A stretch of DNA of 64,000 nt from Candidatus Magasanikiibacteriota bacterium (GCA_003510435.1 DOMK01000013.1:12135-76134), one strand, 5' to 3'; shown: positions 4,546 to 63,654, numbered from the stretch's first letter. The notes: a model not told the origin generated them from the letters alone. Numbers and translations: made by a program.

Positions 4546-6395
4546 AAACTCCTCCGCCCAATTCAGACCAAAAAAGACAAATTATGGGAGCAATCCTTAG
4601 TCAGATTGTGGCCAAACAAATACTCCCGGCTTTATTAAAAGAAGAATTTGCTAAACATCTAATAAACCCAGCAAATTTTCTACCAAATTCAATAAATGAA
4701 ACTCTGGCCGTAGATCCAGCTCAATATATCAGCCCTGTCCTTTCTAATATAGGCATGCAAAACCCAAACATAAATCCTAAAGACATTGTTGGTAATTTTG
4801 GATCAAATAATTCTAGTTTACAACCATCAACCACAGCTGATTCAACTATTCCAAACCAAGGTGGTAATACTGGAACTTCAACTCCAGATACCACACCACA
4901 GGCAGATGCTGACCAAAATGGATCTCCTGCTAATAAAAATGGTCAATCAAAAAATGATTCAGACCAACCACAGGCAGATGCAGATGCAGATAAAGACAAA
5001 GAAAATCCTGATGACGATGATAAAAAAAATGAAGCCAAAAATCCAGAAGCAACGACTGATTTAAATAATCTTGATACGCCAGCTGATAAAGCTGTTAATA
5101 CAGATCAACCGACTGGTTCTGGTCAAAATCAAAATGTACCTGGATCAACCACCCAGCCTGGACAACAAGTTGGTCCTGGTGGTGTGGTAACCAATCCAAC
5201 TCAAGCAGGAGCACCTGGACAAAATACTCCTGGGAGTAATACACCAAATTCACCAACCACACCAGGAGCTAATGCTCAACCTGGTATGAATCCAAATGTT
5301 AGTAATCCAGATACAAAAGATGATAATGCAGATGCAGGCAAAGATGAAAATATTGATGAGGACGATAAAAAACCAGATGAAGACAAACTAGATGGTGAGG
5401 GTGATGATAAAAAAGAACCTGATGATAAAGATAAAGACGGTGACAAAAAAAATGATGAGAATGATAAAAATAGTGGTGACAAAACAAAACCAGATGAAAT
5501 ACCCTCAGGTTATTACGACCCTTATGCCAATTCAAAAGATGGTACGCATGCGGGATATTTTAATCCTGATGCGTCAAAAGAACAAACACCAGTCATAGAT
5601 GAAACAGGAAGAGACAGAGGAGCTACCATAACCCCAGAAAAAAAACCAGGGGATGGTTATTACGACCCTTATGCCAATTCAAAAGATGGTACGCATGCGG
5701 GATATTTTAATCCTGATGCGTCAAAAGAGGACGAAGATAGGGATGAAAGCAGTGACTCTCCATTTGGTGTTGAAAACCAAGACTTTGGCGGTATGAATAT
5801 GCCAAATCAACAAGAAGACCAGGAATCAGATGACGATACTCCACAAGATGGTAAAAGTGAACAACAGCCAGATAAAAAATCAGATTCTGATAATGACGAA
5901 CAAAAAGAAAAAAAACAAAAAATGGAAAACGAAAAAGGAAGCATGACTCAATTTATAAATCAAAATATAATAAACAGAACAAAGATAAACGGCCTAGAAC
6001 AAGAGATAAAAAATTTAGAAAACCAAGCTAATGATCTAAATAAAAAAAATGATGATTTAGATAAAAAAATTAAAGAATTGGAACCAGAATCAATTAAAAA
6101 ATTAAGGGGCATACAAACATTTATGGGAGGTTGTAGTTGTTGTTCTTGTATTTTTTTACCCATATCTCTTATTTCCTCAATATCAACAGCCTTAATTGAA
6201 TTATTTATCCAAATTAAAAAAAAGAAAGAACATGAAAATAAAGCTGAGATTGAAAAACTTGAAGAAGAAAAAAAAGCAAATACTAAAAATCTTAAACAAA
6301 TTAATAAACAAATTAATAAAATAGCTAGGGATATATACAATTTGCGAAACACAGGAATGATGAAAGGAATGGCCAATAATATGTTCAGACACTAG
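4542..6395 (+). CDS. hypothetical acidic low-complexity protein with an internal exact repeat and a C-terminal Cys-rich hydrophobic segment
   Basis: 617 aa, rich in P/T/G/D/K/N. The 25-aa unit GYYDPYANSKDGTHAGYFNPDASKE occurs twice. A C-terminal coiled coil flanks GGCSCCSCIFLPISLISSISTALIELF. Confidence 0.45.
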   Translation: MKTPPPNSDQKRQIMGAILSQIVAKQILPALLKEEFAKHLINPANFLPNSINETLAVDPAQYISPVLSNIGMQNPNINPKDIVGNFGSNNSSLQPSTTADSTIPNQGGNTGTSTPDTTPQADADQNGSPANKNGQSKNDSDQPQADADADKDKENPDDDDKKNEAKNPEATTDLNNLDTPADKAVNTDQPTGSGQNQNVPGSTTQPGQQVGPGGVVTNPTQAGAPGQNTPGSNTPNSPTTPGANAQPGMNPNVSNPDTKDDNADAGKDENIDEDDKKPDEDKLDGEGDDKKEPDDKDKDGDKKNDENDKNSGDKTKPDEIPSGYYDPYANSKDGTHAGYFNPDASKEQTPVIDETGRDRGATITPEKKPGDGYYDPYANSKDGTHAGYFNPDASKEDEDRDESSDSPFGVENQDFGGMNMPNQQEDQESDDDTPQDGKSEQQPDKKSDSDNDEQKEKKQKMENEKGSMTQFINQNIINRTKINGLEQEIKNLENQANDLNKKNDDLDKKIKELEPESIKKLRGIQTFMGGCSCCSCIFLPISLISSISTALIELFIQIKKKKEHENKAEIEKLEEEKKANTKNLKQINKQINKIARDIYNLRNTGMMKGMANNMFRH

Positions 6396-6440: not shown

Positions 6441-7664
6441 ATGGATAAAAAGAAAATCATTTATATTCTGGCATTTATAGTCATAGCTGGTTTATTGGCT
6501 TTTTTAATTTACCGAATATTTTTTTATACAAAACCAGAAACATTAATTATTGGTCCTGATGGTACAATTACTACTACTGGACAAACTGGCCTATTTCCTC
6601 AATCCGGTGAAGGCAAACCTAGTACCACTACTTCTGGAACTTCGGGACAAAAACTACCAACCGCTGGCACAATCAGTCCTACTAGCAAAAGACCTGGTGA
6701 AAGAACCGTAGAAAAGACGGTTGATATTCCAATAATCAGTGCTACCAAAGATATTTCTGGCAATGCTAGATTTTATAATGATGTGGATGGTAAATTTTAT
6801 CGCCTTAATAGTGACGGTAAAGTAGAAAGTCTAAGTGATGAGGTGTTTTATAATGTAAAAAATGTCACTTGGTCACCAGTCAATGAAGACGCTATTATAG
6901 AATATCCTGATGGTGCCAATATTTATTATAATTTTAAAACCAAGGAACAAGTCACCTTACCCAAACACTGGGAAGATTTTTCTTTTTCTGATACTGGAGA
7001 CAAAATTGCTTCCAAAAGTGTTGGCTTATCCCCAGAAAATCAATGGATAATTACTGCTAATCCAGATGGAAAAAATATAAAATTAATTGAACCAATGGGA
7101 GAAAATGCTGCCAAAGTAAATGTTGATTGGTCTCCAAACAAACAAATTGTGGCCACTTCCAGAACTGGTGATGCTCTTGGGGCTGACAGAGAAGAAATCC
7201 TAATGGTTGGCTTAAATGGCGAAAATTTTAAATCCATTGTCGTAGAAGGACGAGGTATACAATCTCAATGGTCAACCGAGGGTAAAAAACTTTTGTATAG
7301 TGTTTATAGCGAACGCAGTGATTTCAAACCAGAATTATGGATAGTAAATTCTTATGGTGATAAAATTGGTTCCGGTAGAAGTTATCTAAATTTGAATACT
7401 TGGGCAGAAAAATGTACTTTCCAAGATGAAAGATTTGTCTATTGTGCTGTTCCTACTCAATTGGAACGCGGAGCTGGTTTTGCCCCGGCTCTTTATGATA
7501 GCACTCCAGATCAAATTTATCGGGTTGACTTGCAGACTGGTATAAAAACCGAAATTCCCGTATCCGAGGATCGGACCATAACTAATATGTTTATTAGCTC
7601 AGATGGAAAAACACTGCAATTCACTGATGAAAATGAGGGTGGTTTATTTAGTATAGATTTATAA
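6441..7664 (+). CDS. membrane-anchored protein with a putative beta-propeller (TolB/WD40-like) ectodomain
   Basis: 407 aa. N-terminal TM helix, a T/S/G-rich linker, then repeated DG-containing beta-strand motifs. The fold assignment is a guess. Confidence 0.4.
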   Translation: MDKKKIIYILAFIVIAGLLAFLIYRIFFYTKPETLIIGPDGTITTTGQTGLFPQSGEGKPSTTTSGTSGQKLPTAGTISPTSKRPGERTVEKTVDIPIISATKDISGNARFYNDVDGKFYRLNSDGKVESLSDEVFYNVKNVTWSPVNEDAIIEYPDGANIYYNFKTKEQVTLPKHWEDFSFSDTGDKIASKSVGLSPENQWIITANPDGKNIKLIEPMGENAAKVNVDWSPNKQIVATSRTGDALGADREEILMVGLNGENFKSIVVEGRGIQSQWSTEGKKLLYSVYSERSDFKPELWIVNSYGDKIGSGRSYLNLNTWAEKCTFQDERFVYCAVPTQLERGAGFAPALYDSTPDQIYRVDLQTGIKTEIPVSEDRTITNMFISSDGKTLQFTDENEGGLFSIDL

Positions 7665-9535: not shown

Positions 9536-12136
9536 CTACTCCAAATGTACTCCATCTTCCCAATCCCTCACTTTACTTACAAGTGAAGGATTTTTTTTGA
9601 AGTCAATTCCTCGTGCCAAATCACGTGATAATTTTATCAAATCCATATCCTGCATGGTGGCGAGTTTAAAAGGTGGTAGACCACTCTGGCTTGTGCCATA
9701 AACTTCACCCGGGCCACGAGTTTGGAGATCATACTCAGCAATTTTAAAACCATCAGTATTTTGAGAAAAAAATTGCAATCGTGCCAAAGATTTTTCATTG
9801 TCAGTGTCAGTAAATAAAAAACAATATGATTGATGTAAAGCTCTACCCACCCGACCACGGAATTGATGGAGCTGGGCCAAGCCAAACCTGTCTGCGCCTT
9901 CTATCATCATCACGACAGCATTAGGAATATTTACTCCCACTTCTACGACTGATGTGGAAACTAGTATATCTATTTTTCCACTCGCAAAATCAGCCATAGT
10001 GTTTTCTTTTTCATTTGGCTTTAATTTGCCATGTAAATAACCAACACGTAAATCTTTAAATATCTCCTCAGATAATTTTTTATATTCACTCATTACACTT
10101 TTTTTATCTAAGGAGTAAGGAATAAGGAGTAAGGAATTATTATCAACAAAATCATCATCACTTTTTCCTTTTTCCTTTTTCCTTTTTCCTTCATCAATCA
10201 ACGGACATATCACAAACACCTGTCTCCCCTGTTTAACTTGTGAACGAATAAAATCATAGGCCTTGTTTCTATTTTCACTATCTACCACTCTAGTATCAAT
10301 TGCTTTTCTACCCACTGGCATTTCATTAATAATAGATAAATCCAAATCACCATACAAAGTAAGAGCAAAGGATCTGGGAATCGGGGTCGCAGTCATAGAC
10401 AACAAGTGAGGCCTCATTGCTGACTGACGCAGACTAGACGCAGACTCATTATTACCACGGGCAATATCATAAACAATTCTTTGAATATCCACGCTCTCGT
10501 GAGAAAAATTTATTAACAAAGCCAACTTATACAGTGATCCTTTTAAATATGTCCAAACCTGTCTATTTTCTCTACTACCAACAAACGGAAGGGCTTTTAA
10601 TTCAATGATAATTTTATCTTCAACCACAAAATCTGGACGATAAATTCCTATTTTTTTATTTTCATATTTTATATCTAATACTTTTTCTTTTTCAAATTTT
10701 ATTCCTTCTTTTTTAAATTCCTCTTCCAATGCATTTTGATAAATTACTTCTTTATGTCCTAAACCTAAATTCTTTTTAACATTAAAAATACATCCTCTTA
10801 TTTTGTAAGTCAAATCTTTATATAAAAATCCACTTTTACTTTCCTTCTCCTGTTGTTCTTCCTCTTCTGCGTCGTCTGCGTAAGTCTGCGTAAGTCTGCG
10901 TCGTTGTTCTACTCCGAATCGATGTTGTTCATCTATAATTACTAAACCTAAATTTTTAAACTGTACTTTTTCTGATAATAGAGCGTGGGTTCCAATAATC
11001 AAGTTTATTTGCCCAGTTTTAATTTGTTTAAGTAAATCTTTTTTAATCAAAATACTAGAAGATCGGTGATCACTGATCACTGATTGAGAACGTGTCAACA
11101 GCGCTATTTTAACTTTATCTTCCAACAGCTTTGTCAGCGAATCAAAATGTTGCACGGCCAATATCTCGGTCGGCGCCATTATCACTGCTTGATAATTATT
11201 CAAAACTGTATTATAAAGCGCCATCGCTGCCACGACAGTTTTTCCACTTCCCACATCACCTTCTAACAATCGATTCATAGGTTCATTTTTTTCCAAATCA
11301 CGCAAAATATCCCAAGCCGACACTTTTTGGGCTTTGGTAAGCTGAAAAGGTAAAGAACTAACAAACTCTTTTATTTTTTCTTGCTGAAATTTTATTTCCC
11401 AAGCTTTTGATCGTTTCAAAGATTGACGAATCATTTCCGCGCGTAATTGTAAAATAAATAGTTCTCCAAATTTCAAACGCTTTTTTGCTTGATTTAAGTC
11501 TATTTCATCTATTGGAAAATGGATACCACGCACCGCTTCGGCCAGATAAATCAAATCTGCTTTTTCTAAAATTTCATCTGGTATCCATTCTTTTAGTAAA
11601 TCATGAGTCAAATAAATTATTTGACTAACTAAAAACCTTAATTGTTTATTAGTAACTCCAGTCGTGAGATGATAAATTGGGACAATCCTGGCAGTATGGG
11701 TAGTGTTTTTTTCTCCCAAAGCTTTTTGTTTGGTTTCTTTTTCATAAGACGGCGATGCCATTTGTTTGCCTAGTTTTCCAATTGATAATTTGCCTGATAG
11801 ATAAACTGTATCACCAGGTTTAAAATTCCGAGTAATAAAAGGCTGGCCAAACCAAACAATTTTTAATTTTCCAGTTTCATCATAAACAATCGCCTCTGTC
11901 ATAATTGTTCGTCTTTTAAAAATCCGCCGATTGGAAATAATCTCTATTTTCGCTTTAATTGTCACTTCTTCCCCTACTTCCAAATCAGCAATATTCTTGG
12001 TACTACTATAATCTTGATAGCGAAAAGGTAAATAAAACAACAAATCCTGAATAGTATTTATACCAAGATTTTTTAAATGCCTTTCCATCTTTTTGGCAAT
12101 ATGGTTGATTTGTCCAATAAGTGTGTCTAATTGCAT
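9536..12136 (-). CDS. recG: ATP-dependent DNA helicase RecG carrying an in-frame PD-(D/E)XK (GxxExxY-type) domain insertion
   Basis: 866 aa. Walker A GSGKT, DEQH box, MTATPIPR motif III and an N-terminal wedge region. About 165 extra aa lie between DEQH and motif III. Confidence 0.85.
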   Translation of the reverse strand: MQLDTLIGQINHIAKKMERHLKNLGINTIQDLLFYLPFRYQDYSSTKNIADLEVGEEVTIKAKIEIISNRRIFKRRTIMTEAIVYDETGKLKIVWFGQPFITRNFKPGDTVYLSGKLSIGKLGKQMASPSYEKETKQKALGEKNTTHTARIVPIYHLTTGVTNKQLRFLVSQIIYLTHDLLKEWIPDEILEKADLIYLAEAVRGIHFPIDEIDLNQAKKRLKFGELFILQLRAEMIRQSLKRSKAWEIKFQQEKIKEFVSSLPFQLTKAQKVSAWDILRDLEKNEPMNRLLEGDVGSGKTVVAAMALYNTVLNNYQAVIMAPTEILAVQHFDSLTKLLEDKVKIALLTRSQSVISDHRSSSILIKKDLLKQIKTGQINLIIGTHALLSEKVQFKNLGLVIIDEQHRFGVEQRRRLTQTYADDAEEEEQQEKESKSGFLYKDLTYKIRGCIFNVKKNLGLGHKEVIYQNALEEEFKKEGIKFEKEKVLDIKYENKKIGIYRPDFVVEDKIIIELKALPFVGSRENRQVWTYLKGSLYKLALLINFSHESVDIQRIVYDIARGNNESASSLRQSAMRPHLLSMTATPIPRSFALTLYGDLDLSIINEMPVGRKAIDTRVVDSENRNKAYDFIRSQVKQGRQVFVICPLIDEGKRKKEKGKSDDDFVDNNSLLLIPYSLDKKSVMSEYKKLSEEIFKDLRVGYLHGKLKPNEKENTMADFASGKIDILVSTSVVEVGVNIPNAVVMMIEGADRFGLAQLHQFRGRVGRALHQSYCFLFTDTDNEKSLARLQFFSQNTDGFKIAEYDLQTRGPGEVYGTSQSGLPPFKLATMQDMDLIKLSRDLARGIDFKKNPSLVSKVRDWEDGVHLE

Positions 12137-13123: not shown

Positions 13124-13272
13124 ATGACTAAAAGGTCTGACCTTCCCGATGTAAAATCGGGACGCTCTATAACCTCCGCCAAAGGCGGATCAGCCTATGG
13201 CTGAAACTGCCTGTCCGTCCGAAGTCCTCCGTAGCTTTAGCGAAGGAGGACGAAGGCGGAAGCTACAGATCC

Positions 13273-25991: not shown

Positions 25992-26198
25992 ATTTTTTAC
26001 TAATCCCGAACCCGCCGTAGTCCGTCAGCTGACGGACGAAGGTGGGGAGGGATCCCTTTTCTATGAATCAAAGGCTGGATTACACCCAAACCTTCGTACC
26101 AGTCGAAAGCGAGATCTCTCCACTCGGAGTTAAATTTATTAATTAATTATTCTATGAAAGTTTTATTATTATTTGGCGTCATGATGACACGGAAAAGG

Positions 26199-27027: not shown

Positions 27028-27170
27028 GTATCCACAAAAGATATGCCCAGATGCCTGCCTGCCGACGAGGCAGGGCGGAACTGGTACCATGAACCACAAG
27101 GATTCATGACCATACACCCCACGTGGTGCATGGGACGCACAGTATTATTTACAAGAACACAACCAAATAT

Positions 27171-27257
27171 GCCCAGATGGCGGAACTGGTAGACGCACTG
27201 GACTCAAAATCCAGCGGTCGCAAGACCATGAGGGTTCGATTCCCTCTTTGGGCACCA
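27171..27257 (+). tRNA. tRNA-Leu (anticodon CAA), class II with a long variable arm
   Basis: 87 nt ending in an encoded CCA. Anticodon loop CTCAAAA, long extra arm CGGTCGCAAGACCAT, T-loop TTCGATT. The 3' end lies 7 nt before the next ATG. Confidence 0.8.
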
Positions 27258-36380: not shown

Positions 36381-36561
36381 ATAGCATTGATTTAAACAGA
36401 TTAAAACTGATTCAGACAAAAAATTTACCACAAAATCTCTGTGTAATTCTGTCTAAAACAATGCTTATATCTTAGCAAAAACTAACCGATTTGGCAAGCA
36501 AAAAACACACCAATTTTGATGTGCTTTTGAGTCGTCCCGAAGGCGCAGACGACCTTCGGGT

Positions 36562-36771
36562 TCATTCCTTCTTCCTCCTCGAGGGGAATGCCTCCTTGAT
36601 GACACGGTACTCGGACCACGTCATCCACTGACCAGGCACAACACCGAAGATCTCACTGGGTGTTCGCCTGCCACCCGTCTTCTCCGACGGAATGCACTCA
36701 TCCAGCGCTTCCGGCGGGTAACGACGCAGTTCGTCCGTCTGAACAGATTTTAGTGCAAACACCTTGGGCAT
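36562..36771 (-). CDS. GC-rich 69-aa hypothetical protein (mini-cassette 3)
   Basis: MPKVFALKSVQTDELRRYPPEALDECIPSEKTGGRRTPSEIFGVVPGQWMTWSEYRVIKEAFPSRRKKE. It has its own TATAAT (plus 36799-36804) and a GGAG RBS, followed by a GC-rich double hairpin and a T-run (36494-36560). GC content is clearly above the surroundings. Confidence 0.5.
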   Translation of the reverse strand: MPKVFALKSVQTDELRRYPPEALDECIPSEKTGGRRTPSEIFGVVPGQWMTWSEYRVIKEAFPSRRKKE

Positions 36772-36873
36772 GTTGTTCTCCAAATCTATGTTTATTTTAT
36801 TATACACCCACAAAATTTTTATGCAACAAAAAAACACACTAATTTTAATGTGTTCACCATTTCCGTGTTCTCC

Positions 36874-37905
36874 TTATTTTATTCCGTATAATCCGTGTTT
36901 CTGCATCTTCACCATAAAAAACCCTTCAATCTCTTTACTTGGTATTATCCGTAAGGCTTTTTTAACTACTTCTTTATTAATCTCTCTTTCCTTCCATGTT
37001 CTAACAATCGGCAATTTATTAACTCCACTCAACTCAATTGGCAACAACTCACAATTTGTATTTTGCTCCATGAATTTTGTTATTTGCAGTTCATTCTCTT
37101 CTGGCGCAAACGTACAAGTTGAATAAACCAAAATTCCCCCTGGTTTTAACATTTGCCAAGCTGAGAACAACAACTTGCGTTGTAAATAAGCTGTATCTTT
37201 AATATTTCGTTCTTGCCAAAAACCATATGTGGTTGGTTTGTCTAAAATAATTCGCGCTTCGGCAGTACAGGGCGCGTCAAGTAAAATCTTATCAAAATAA
37301 TTTGGGTATAATTTAGTCAATTCTACTCCATTTTCATTTTTTAATTCTAATTTCCAATTGTTATTATCACCTATTACACCCAACAATTCCAAATTATGTT
37401 CTAATTTTTGAAATCTAACTTTATCTACGTCATTGGCCACAAGTTCACCTTTTGGTTTTCTTCCGCCCAAGGCGGATTCGTCTGGGTCGAACATCAACGC
37501 AGCAATCTGCGAAGTTTTACTCCCTGGAGCAGCCGTCAAATCTAAAACCTTTTCGCCAGATTGCGGATTCAAAACTAAAGGTGGTACCATACTCGCCAAA
37601 CTTTGTACATAAATTTTTCCTTGTTTATACAAATCCAAATCCTGCAGTTCACGCAGAGTTTTATTTTTCAAAATAAAAGCATCTTTATACCAAACAACAT
37701 TATCTGTTTTAAATCCCAAATCAAACAAAGCCTGTCTAATTTCATTTTTATCAGCTTTAATAGTATTTACCCGAAAAGTTGTCGGTCGTTCTACAAATGT
37801 CTGCTGAATTTGGGTACACAAAGAAACGCCGAACATTTCTGTTAGGCGTTCAATAAATTTTTCTGGTAAATTATGACTATGTTTTTTATTCATTTTATGG
37901 TTCAA
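36874..37905 (-). CDS. 16S rRNA m5C methyltransferase, NOL1/NOP2/Sun (RsmB-like) family
   Basis: 343 aa. SAM-binding motif DLTAAPGSKT and catalytic DAPCT region (DKILLDAPCTAE). Confidence 0.75.
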   Translation of the reverse strand: MNHKMNKKHSHNLPEKFIERLTEMFGVSLCTQIQQTFVERPTTFRVNTIKADKNEIRQALFDLGFKTDNVVWYKDAFILKNKTLRELQDLDLYKQGKIYVQSLASMVPPLVLNPQSGEKVLDLTAAPGSKTSQIAALMFDPDESALGGRKPKGELVANDVDKVRFQKLEHNLELLGVIGDNNNWKLELKNENGVELTKLYPNYFDKILLDAPCTAEARIILDKPTTYGFWQERNIKDTAYLQRKLLFSAWQMLKPGGILVYSTCTFAPEENELQITKFMEQNTNCELLPIELSGVNKLPIVRTWKEREINKEVVKKALRIIPSKEIEGFFMVKMQKHGLYGIK

Positions 37906-41913: not shown

Positions 41914-42084
41914 ATGGAATTAATCCTGGCAATAATCCTCGGCCTGATTGGGTTTGCCATCCTGAAGCTGATTCTTCGCACCGCTCTGTTCGGTGTAAAG
42001 ATCGGCTGTGGGTTGCTCACCCTCGCCATAATACTCGCGATCGTGTCGGGCCTGTGGCTGAAAGCCGGGGAGGGGTTCGTGTGA
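41914..42084 (+). CDS. GC-rich 56-aa hydrophobic peptide with two predicted TM helices (mini-cassette 1)
   Basis: MELILAIILGLIGFAILKLILRTALFGVKIGCGLLTLAIILAIVSGLWLKAGEGFV. Strong RBS. The stop codon sits in the loop of the hairpin gggttcg-tgtgaa-cgaaccc. Codon usage is GC-rich, unlike neighbouring genes. Confidence 0.5.
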   Translation: MELILAIILGLIGFAILKLILRTALFGVKIGCGLLTLAIILAIVSGLWLKAGEGFV

Positions 42085-48987: not shown

Positions 48988-49176
48988 ATGCAAATTCGTT
49001 TTCTAGACATCGTTGCCTTGGTCGTTCAGGTACTAGTGGTCCTAGGTGGTTTGTTACTCACAATACTCAGTGAGACCGTGTGGGATCTGTCGGTTGGAAT
49101 CGCGACAACCTACAGCGGAGTACGGGCGATAAAAGGCATCTTCAAAGAAATGAGGACGCCTCCACCAGCCGATTAA
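48988..49176 (+). CDS. GC-rich 62-aa hydrophobic peptide (mini-cassette 2)
   Basis: MQIRFLDIVALVVQVLVVLGGLLLTILSETVWDLSVGIATTYSGVRAIKGIFKEMRTPPPAD. One long hydrophobic span. GC-rich codons. Confidence 0.5.
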   Translation: MQIRFLDIVALVVQVLVVLGGLLLTILSETVWDLSVGIATTYSGVRAIKGIFKEMRTPPPAD

Positions 49177-62853: not shown

Positions 62854-63062
62854 TTTCTCTGCACTAAAAAAGTCTTAAATTTCTAATATCTAATTTCTAA
62901 TTAACCTAATAAAATACCAAATAACAAAATCCAAATTCCAAATCAATTTTAAACTTAAGATTACTAAATTAATATCCACACCACTTACATTGACAACTCT
63001 CTCTCTCTGTTTGTTAGGATAAGATGTCGTGCATCGAACGCACGAAGATGAAGGAGGCAGAC

Positions 63063-63395
63063 ATGGCGATTGTCACCATCCGGTTGTACCGGAAAAATGG
63101 CAAAAGGGGGGTTGAGGTAATCAAAAAAAAGCATTACCCGCGCCTCCAACGGTCACTTACCCGCTACATGGCCTCGGTCGATGGAGAACACCTCGCCCGC
63201 TCATGGAACACAGCAGGGCTGGCCGAGGTAGACGGTGAATGGTTTGTCACCGTCGATGGAGATGGTAAGGCCAGCATGCCGGAAAAACTGAGAAGCCATC
63301 TCTGGATCTACTATGGCTTCAACAGGTTCCTAGCAAGGATCTACAAGGGCCTAACCAGTGACGATGAACACCTTCCCGCCTTTCGCCCCTCCTAG
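63063..63395 (+). CDS. GC-rich 110-aa hypothetical soluble protein (mini-cassette 4)
   Basis: MAIVTIRLYRKNGKRGVEVIKKKHYPRL.... RBS AAGGAGG 5 nt upstream. A TTGACA box lies at 62990-62995, with a weak -10 TAGGAT after a 19-nt spacer. Very GC-rich relative to its neighbours. An alternative upstream ATG at 63024 lacks an RBS. Confidence 0.45.
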   Translation: MAIVTIRLYRKNGKRGVEVIKKKHYPRLQRSLTRYMASVDGEHLARSWNTAGLAEVDGEWFVTVDGDGKASMPEKLRSHLWIYYGFNRFLARIYKGLTSDDEHLPAFRPS

Positions 63396-63654
63396 CGTTC
63401 GCTTCGCCCCGGTTCAGGGGCAACATGCCGGTTGCGCGTCAGCCGATGACCGAGAGGGAAAACCCTCCGGGTGTCGGAGGGTGTGAGCATGCGGACAATA
63501 CAACGAAAGAATCGTCCACCACAGCTAGATTTTCATTATTGAAAATTTAACTAAGGAGTTTGGGACGATTTTTTTGTTTACACAAGCAATCCTATCCCCT
63601 AACCCCTTTCCCCTACAAAAGGGCAAGGGGAATTAAAGCCCCTCCACTTTTTAA

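Follow-up and report, generated by a model that had tools for sequence, protein, structure and literature searches.

A small GC-rich gene between rsmB and aspS of a Candidatus Magasanikbacteria chromosome, probably acquired as a moron-like unit

How does a gene of only 69 codons, far richer in guanine and cytosine (GC) than its neighbours, come to stand between two core genes of a very small genome, and what might its product do? The question is raised by a 64-kb stretch of a Candidatus Magasanikbacteria chromosome (GCA_003510435.1, DOMK01000013.1:12135-76134; all of it is here called the window), in which a short cassette separates an rsmB-like gene from aspS. The genomes of Patescibacteria, or candidate phyla radiation (CPR), are tiny and streamlined, so any extra gene that they retain is informative. 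We consider the cassette to be, probably, a horizontally acquired, autonomous, moron-like single-gene transcription unit inserted in the rsmB|aspS spacer of this patescibacterial chromosome.

Read along the minus strand, on which the cassette gene lies, the locus runs from the rsmB stop codon through a first terminator (repeat copy A), a weak -35 with a perfect -10, a GGAG and the GC-rich open reading frame (ORF) to a GC hairpin, a second terminator (repeat copy B), the aspS promoter and aspS itself. In window numbering, which is used throughout, the features are as follows.

36874, minus: stop of the rsmB-like gene.
36823..36855, minus: terminator hairpin and T-run directly after the rsmB-like stop; holds direct-repeat copy A (36823-36852) and forms a 10-bp hairpin in the RNAfold centroid.
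36799..36826, minus: putative cassette promoter, read from the sequence as TTGCAT (36826-36821), a 16-nt spacer and TATAAT (36804-36799).
36778..36781, minus: Shine-Dalgarno sequence GGAG, 6 nt ahead of the ATG.
36562..36771, minus: ORF of 69 amino acids (aa), ATG 36771-36769, TGA 36564-36562; NCBI HBU07139.1, DEB09_03575, hypothetical protein; a peptide of the predicted product is TPSEIFGVVPGQWMTWSEYR.
36531..36560, minus: GC-rich hairpin directly after the stop codon, with an 8-bp helix CCCGAAGG/CCTTCGGG (arms 36536-36543 and 36553-36560) and an alternative helix GTCGTC/GACGAC (arms 36531-36536 and 36548-36553).
36494..36528, minus: A-tract/hairpin/T-run terminator, with hairpin and T-run at 36499-36528 and direct-repeat copy B at 36494-36523; the host rsmB terminator of the clade.
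36469..36497, minus: aspS promoter TTGCCA-17-TAAGAT with TG, matched by the promoter scanner; the boundary of the cassette and not a part of it.

A preliminary description of this DNA, made from the sequence alone, had placed the ORF, its translation, the TATAAT and the GGAG exactly here. A moron has its own promoter and terminator, has a deviant GC content and is missing in relatives (PMC3594210; Hendrix/Juhala). At the level of sequence the first of these marks is present, as the gene has its own -10, Shine-Dalgarno sequence and downstream hairpin with T-run.

The second mark, deviant composition, is pronounced. The GC island reaches a 150-nt maximum of 0.607 against a window mean of 0.346 (standard deviation, sd, 0.061), which is 4.3 sd above the mean and the second highest value in the 64 kb, after 63013-63569. 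Overall, GC is 0.56 compared with 0.35 in the surroundings. At third codon positions (GC3) the ORF has 0.66, the mean of 28 host genes being 0.247 (sd 0.03) and the highest of 1097 host windows of 70 codons 0.443. The gene is thus compositionally foreign, and the impression given by the preliminary description, of a GC content far above that of the flanking genes, is borne out by computation and by codon analysis, in which the ORF exceeds every host window.

The third mark, absence from relatives, came from six contigs (L087-L091 and L094) found through RsmB homologues of 63-69% identity; an AspS-based scan of genome contigs gave nothing closer than 55% identity. All six keep the order rsmB -> aspS or asnS-rsmB-aspS, and every relative examined keeps TTTTTGCTAA[GA]AT ahead of aspS. 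In three (L088, L089 and L090) the cassette is missing from the syntenic site, and their spacers of 144-162 nt hold one terminator and the aspS promoter only. The window spacer measures 493 nt, and taking away one repeat period of 329 nt leaves 164 nt.

That period is set by a 30-nt direct repeat (36494-36523 and 36823-36852) with 26/30 identical positions, which comprises the terminator hairpin, the T-run and the start of a -35. The repeat is unique in the window: the next best match to its 30-mer is 20/30 over 128 kb (both window strands). Copy A now terminates rsmB, and in its stem a U-A pair replaces the C-G pair of copy B; as this change is compensatory, both copies have been maintained as hairpins. 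The terminator that immediately precedes the aspS promoter in L094 is an orthologue of copy B (86% over 63 nt), as is that of L087. The double-hairpin terminator with which the preliminary description had credited the cassette is therefore only half its own, the GC hairpin being cassette-borne and the T-run hairpin a copy of the host rsmB terminator. These alignments indicate that the cassette is an insertion relative to the related genomes.

Does the inserted ORF encode a protein? Its length is no evidence, because the GC island also carries ORFs of 46-60 aa in other frames. For relatives we searched 5.8 billion clusters by indexed words and 1.84 billion representatives exhaustively with an HMMER profile. 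Only two true family members emerged, the window protein itself (P0001, HBU07139.1, from a Candidatus Magasanikbacteria metagenome-assembled genome) and P0002, a 63-aa protein on the JGI contig Ga0172367_10014691 (L001), which is the sole homologue among ~15 billion proteins. A third sequence added by the profile search, P0003, was rejected as a spurious repetitive eukaryote-like protein. Back-translated family scans of genome contigs and viral contigs gave no match, and a metagenome scan returned only the L001 sequence again.

The two proteins have in common an N-terminal F-x-L-x3-Q-x-DE[LI], a block RRTPSEI[FY]G and a C-terminal block TWSEYR[VL]IKEAFPSR, joined by linkers of varying length. 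The two main blocks comprise 24 codons. Here 14 differences in 16.5 sites are synonymous and 4 in 55.5 sites are non-synonymous (proportions pS 0.85 and pN 0.07); over all 57 aligned codons the non-synonymous divergence, dN, is 0.42 and the synonymous divergence, dS, is saturated. Saturated synonymous change with so few amino-acid changes in the blocks is the mark of a translated, selected protein, and this pattern of substitution shows the ORF to be a real protein-coding gene under purifying selection.

The cassette is not an assembly artefact, since four assemblies from four other sequencing runs match the window across it, three identically and the fourth with 2 single-nucleotide polymorphisms (SNPs). 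The frame is intact in all five assemblies. The strain variant (L096, ENA SRR2177956 contig) has its SNPs at 36689, where P28 in the variable linker becomes Q, and at 36492, where the aspS -35 reads TTGCCT and not TTGCCA. The gene is uncalled in four contigs examined (three Logan, one ENA), and another ENA contig calls a start that gives 81 aa.

The locus of the homologue in L001 bears on the question of movement. Its host is also a Patescibacterium: its polynucleotide phosphorylase (PNPase) is 70-75% identical to proteins labelled 'Patescibacteria group' or 'Candidatus Magasanikbacteria', with closer relatives (P0132 and P0133) at 88-90%, and type IV secretion system (T4SS)-pilin genes lie nearby. 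The gene lies 130 nt downstream of tRNA-Gly(GCC) and is laid out in a similar way, with an AT-rich promoter, a G-rich Shine-Dalgarno sequence, the ORF, a GC hairpin CCCCGGAA/TTCCGGGG and a long terminator. It is GC-shifted there too, its GC3 of 0.61 comparing with 0.29-0.47 for most host genes and 0.54 for one. The -10 and 5' untranslated regions of the two cassettes align, and the window cassette is the top window match to the L001 upstream segment, narrowly (score 20 vs 19 and 18), which suggests that the promoter may travel with the gene.

The L001 gene is bounded by a 67-nt direct repeat, 90% identical and with a period of 494 nt, which starts at the tRNA 3' end and includes the terminator. 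Three copies of 67-90 nt (6146-6212, ~6608-6706 and ~7310-7395) bound two inserts, and the two distal copies extend 5' with a degenerate segment resembling a tRNA 3' end. The inserts are only 0.4-0.6 kb and no integrase was found there. Tandem accretion at a tRNA attachment site is a classical picture, and the L001 array matches it. The repeats of the window and of L001 are both terminators and have no common sequence, so the two loci do not share an attachment (att) core. The family is carried in different repeat-bounded contexts in two lineages of Patescibacteria. The second L001 insert (6740-7300) has ~470 nt of GC-rich sequence that starts like a promoter, contains no ORF longer than 74 aa and matches nothing in Rfam; it could be a structured RNA or a decayed cassette in the tandem array.

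From the composition, the direct repeats and the comparison with relatives we infer horizontal acquisition of an autonomous moron-like gene. The unit may have entered by recombination at the terminator. A circular intermediate with a copy of the terminator region could have integrated through a single crossover, or site-specific recombination could have been supplied in trans, and both would leave the same flanking direct repeats. The insertion amounts to one 329-nt period and duplicated the host terminator, plus the -35. As a consequence of the duplication rsmB would still be terminated, the new gene would have a terminator and aspS would keep its promoter. Patescibacteria exchange genes mostly among themselves and carry competence genes (PMC12455944). 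DprA and RecO are both encoded in the window.

What sets the cassette apart from a phage moron is its setting. Like a moron, it is a single extra gene that separates neighbours which adjoin in relatives, and it has a promoter and a factor-independent terminator of its own and a deviant GC content. Unlike one, it stands in a bacterial housekeeping stretch (asnS-rsmB | aspS, with ScpA/B nearby), no viral relatives were found, and its insertion duplicated a host terminator. It is also like the integrase-less, att-flanked mini integrative elements akin to cis-mobilisable elements (CIMEs) in having direct repeats of target sequence at both ends (30 nt in the window, 67 nt in L001) and, in L001, in the array tRNA-Gly/repeat/insert/repeat/insert/repeat with the tRNA-3'-like extension of the distal repeats. 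It differs from them in the small size of the inserts (0.3-0.6 kb), in that a search in cis and nearby turned up no integrase, in the target of the window copy, which is a terminator and not a tRNA, and in the unrelated repeats of the two members. With integron cassettes it has in common a small ORF followed by an imperfect palindrome and the presence of different cassettes at one site; it has its own -10 and Shine-Dalgarno sequence, however, and its hairpin is only ~30 nt. An integron cassette was rejected, as neither strand of 36480-36880 has a GTTRRRY or RYYYAAC core site and no intI was seen among the window ORFs.

Several observations weigh against the moron-like acquisition that we prefer. 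The -35 of the predicted cassette promoter, TTGCAT, matches only 3/6 of the consensus, and a consensus scanner called neither this promoter nor either terminator. The self-contained cassette of the preliminary description, with its own expression signals, holds at the sequence level. The repeats of the two family members being unrelated, a single site-specific system cannot explain both. No flanking repeats were found at the other GC-rich mini-genes of the window, no integrase or transposase was found among 30 window ORFs or inside the 0.3-kb insert, and no polymorphic empty site was found in the species, as five of five assemblies carry the cassette. AlphaFold2 on the two-sequence alignment gave a poor model (predicted local distance difference test, pLDDT, 57.8; predicted template modelling score, pTM, 0.27). 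The product might be a small cytoplasmic binding protein, with RRTPSEI[FY]G as a conserved block and TWSEYR[VL]IKEAFPSR as an amphipathic helix that bears a basic tail. It would more likely be an accessory factor than an enzyme, toxin or antitoxin.

The age of the insertion is a further difficulty. Between the two repeat copies the divergence is 13%, close to that between the window and L094 in this region, and L087 has the same hairpin. If the insertion is accordingly old, a GC3 of 0.66 in a genome with a GC3 of 0.25 is hard to explain by recent transfer alone. Three possible ways out are that the ORF was replaced later by recombination between the conserved terminator-promoter modules (cassette swapping), that GC-rich codons were selected, or that the repeats diverged quickly.

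The relatives that do have something in the spacer bear on this point. In L094 the slot holds, in order, an L088-like terminator, a TTGACA promoter, a structured GC-rich leader, an ORF of 62 aa and a perfect 13-bp GC hairpin, and ends with the same terminator and aspS promoter as in the window; its ORF is unrelated to the window gene, very basic, and has a GC3 of 0.89. The spacer of L091 is 866 nt and contains three tandem hydrophobic ORFs of 59-65 aa on the opposite strand (L091 2270-2843). L087 has no ORF and keeps GAATGA, the GC hairpin of the window, the terminator and the promoter. GAATGA is the last codon and stop of the window ORF, its counterpart in P0002 being GAATAA. The hairpins of L087 and the window differ by one compensatory change from an A-U to a G-C pair and one extra G, and so few changes over 33 nt, when the flanking coding DNA is 74-76% identical, have P ~0.015. 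The shared GAATGA mildly favours loss of the ORF from L087 over its never having been there. A decayed ORF remnant was sought in L087 and not found, as the alignment was no better than with shuffled sequences (P ~0.4) and only GAATGA and the hairpin were common.

We regard the rsmB|aspS spacer as an intergenic hot spot for small genes. Chromosomal hot spots of horizontal gene transfer lie between core genes (PMC5635113), and here one such interval has different contents: the window cassette, the 62-aa ORF of L094, the three ORFs of L091, and nothing in L088-L090. It differs from the described hot spots in its unusually small scale, with single genes of 56-110 codons, and in the extreme GC shift of the cargo (GC3 0.51-0.89 vs 0.25-0.31). 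The spacers of L094 (1099-1200) and L087 (1349-1448) also contain an element of ~100 nt that resembles a miniature inverted-repeat transposable element (MITE), with termini CCCGCCTGCC... and ...GGCATTG[GA]CGGGCAGG, in opposite orientations and at different places within the two spacers.

The alternative that survives best, although we think it rather unlikely, is that the cassette belongs to a class of non-autonomous mobile mini-cassettes of undescribed kind. A recombinase acting in trans would move these into terminator hairpins or tRNA 3' flanks, making direct repeats of 30-90 nt, and cassettes would swap at fixed 'landing pads' of duplicated terminator-promoter modules. The long direct repeats of target sequence that bound both family members include a terminator hairpin in each case, the L001 array has two inserts and three repeats beside a tRNA, the window and L094 hold different cassettes in the same slot between terminator-promoter modules, and L087 keeps the GC hairpin with its compensatory pair in the absence of the ORF. 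There are, moreover, four such mini-genes within 64 kb, as the window has three more GC-rich genes, each with a TTGACA / TGnTAnAAT promoter, a GGAGG Shine-Dalgarno sequence, a GC hairpin and a terminator.

41914-42084, plus: 56-aa hydrophobic protein, GC3 0.72, between recO and tRNA-Asn.
48988-49176, plus: 62-aa membrane protein, GC3 0.51, convergent with the end of secY.
63063-63395, plus: 110-aa basic protein, GC3 0.65; a structured, GC-rich 3' sequence of ~170 nt continues to ~63570.

The promoters of the first two are 79% identical over 38 nt. The three products are orphans in Pfam, PHROGs and PADLOC, and none of the genes has flanking direct repeats. Only two cases flanked by repeats exist, with repeats that are unrelated; the cassettes share only promoter-like motifs, no recombinase was found among the 30 window ORFs, neither excision nor an empty-site polymorphism was seen in the assemblies, and ordinary homologous (Campbell-type) recombination accounts for the repeats equally well. 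In its widest form this alternative would make the window cassette, the L001 homologue, the L094 cassette and the three other mini-genes an undescribed patescibacterial population of miniature single-gene cassettes, whose GC-richness would be kept by selection instead of being a fading trace of a donor. Such cassettes would combine a host-type AT-rich promoter and Shine-Dalgarno sequence with a GC hairpin and an ORF strongly shifted towards GC. Their entry at terminator hairpins or tRNA 3' flanks would generate repeats of 30-90 nt, and they would be exchanged at fixed intergenic landing pads. The tension between age and GC3, taken with the three further mini-genes, leaves some room for this reading, which we put forward with marked reserve.

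Another proposal concerns function. The preliminary description had suggested an antitoxin or a regulator-like protein, and a type II antitoxin or small DNA-binding regulator, like Phd/YefM or AlpA/Xis, would neutralise a toxin or control transcription. The product is indeed soluble and charged, as that description had it, being basic (isoelectric point, pI, 9.3) and hydrophilic (grand average of hydropathy, GRAVY, -0.8), with no paired cysteines and no hydrophobic segment. Its xMTWSEYRVIKEA resembles by eye both the 'LMSLEEYNSLEET' of YefM and the 'YRLIKEG.FP' of AlpA, and two non-significant tblastn matches (E = 2-4) fall on winged-helix-turn-helix genes. The likeness to these families is nevertheless one of size, charge and a short motif. 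No toxin or other partner gene adjoins the gene in the window, where it is single between terminators, or in L001, where it is single between repeats; a two-gene toxin-antitoxin module can therefore be set aside, and the expected toxin-like neighbour of the homologue was not found.

Neither the 69-aa protein nor its homologue matched anything in Pfam, PHROGs, NCBIfam, PADLOC or PDB sequences, even at E<=10. In Pfam five typed control antitoxins scored 1e-7 to 6e-28, while the 69-aa protein had no PF02604 match at E<=10. Both motif resemblances were rejected on alignment with hhalign: the Phd/YefM-like one (xSxxEYxxLxE; '...S.EEY..L.E') gave 13 columns and 0.2% probability, and the AlpA/Xis one ('YRLIKEG.FP', HTH_17) 7 columns and 0.2%. 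The test alignments were small, with members that were Pfam-confirmed except for TorI, which had a sub-threshold HTH_17 match only. AlphaFold2 predicts a short helix at 38-41 and another at 52-61, and the loop between them, of 8-12 residues and variable length, is unlike a helix-turn-helix. We therefore consider an antitoxin or regulator of these kinds highly improbable.

Two further accounts of origin are still less credible. The first is that the cassette is a decaying, non-functional remnant of a phage, a plasmid or a foreign gene, in which the frame merely happens to be open. Foreign composition, a tiny family with no known relatives and a hairpin that appears to stand alone in L087 would all suit it. 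A remnant would hardly be expected to keep an intact frame in five assemblies, to show purifying selection between the two members, or to retain its start, Shine-Dalgarno sequence, -10 and terminator all intact; no larger parent protein was found in the exhaustive search, tblastn against phages and plasmids gave only noise at E>=0.9, and viral contigs had no relative. The suggestion of a phage or plasmid remnant in the preliminary description thus survives only as far as cargo of a mobile element is concerned, which is reasonable because the sole homologue sits in a repeat-bounded array beside a tRNA gene; no relatives appear in phage, plasmid or viral-contig collections.

The second, which we credit as little, is that this is a vertically inherited, lineage-specific gene whose GC-richness comes from selection on mRNA or protein and not from transfer. 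The promoter and Shine-Dalgarno sequence are host-like, and the 13% divergence of the repeat copies and the hairpin common to L087 mean that the unit may be old. The cassette is missing, however, at the syntenic site in L088, L089, L090, L091 and L094, and its only homologue is found in another lineage and at another locus, beside a tRNA and inside repeats.

The GC hairpin deserves separate comment. Together with the terminator it folds with z = -4.0 (RNAfold), the 8-bp helix being the minimum free energy form. The preliminary description had reported two interleaved GC helices. Both are present where it placed them, but they are alternative pairings and no pseudoknot, as two G residues are common to both and the loops would be of zero length. 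No other perfect 8-bp GC hairpin occurs in this part of the window, and as the L001 homologue cassette and the unrelated L094 cassette have a GC hairpin at the same position, this one would seem to travel with the ORF as a 3'-end stabiliser or donor-type terminator.

Least credible of all is that the island is a structured non-coding RNA or a cis-regulatory aspS leader with the ORF a by-product of GC-richness: GC-rich islands in AT-rich genomes are frequently structured RNAs, other frames of this one are open too, its 3' end folds well and L087 conserves the hairpin in the absence of the ORF, but Rfam gave no family at the gathering threshold and only terminator look-alikes at E = 0.09-10, the whole transcript folds unremarkably (z-score -2.2), the block substitutions against the L001 homologue are overwhelmingly synonymous, which is not expected of an RNA, and a terminator and the aspS promoter stand between the island and aspS.

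The window has other features of note. The 5' leader of aspS itself (36383-36465) forms a long hairpin, in which the stretch immediately ahead of the start codon pairs with the transcript's 5' end (arms of 28 nt, 79% complementary); L094 has a similar leader, and the hairpin may act in translational control. At 27040-27150, immediately before tRNA-Leu (27171-27257), lies a partial duplicate of the tRNA-Leu 5' end (GCCCAGATG...GGCGGAACTGGTA), which a GC-rich hairpin interrupts and after which come ~75 nt of GC-rich sequence; it has no Rfam match and is another signature of insertion with target duplication. Two GC-rich (~0.5-0.55) non-coding islands, 13124-13270 and 25995-26140, of which one adjoins tRNA-Val and one lies between parB and parA, contain inverted repeats, matched nothing in Rfam at E<=1, and are candidate unannotated RNAs. 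The RecG helicase (9536-12136, minus) has a PD-(D/E)XK nuclease domain (PF13366, residues 440-553) inserted between its helicase lobes.

Taken by itself, the locus has yielded something modest, namely a validated small gene, a new orphan family of proteins and a correction of the antitoxin idea. The junction of core genes at which it lies is a slot for very small, strongly GC-shifted orphan genes with complete predicted expression signals, and one such family has moved between lineages within units bounded by repeats. Were the pattern a general one, it would give access to the ways in which ultra-small bacteria gain and trade accessory functions, and to a pool of small proteins overlooked by gene callers and family databases.

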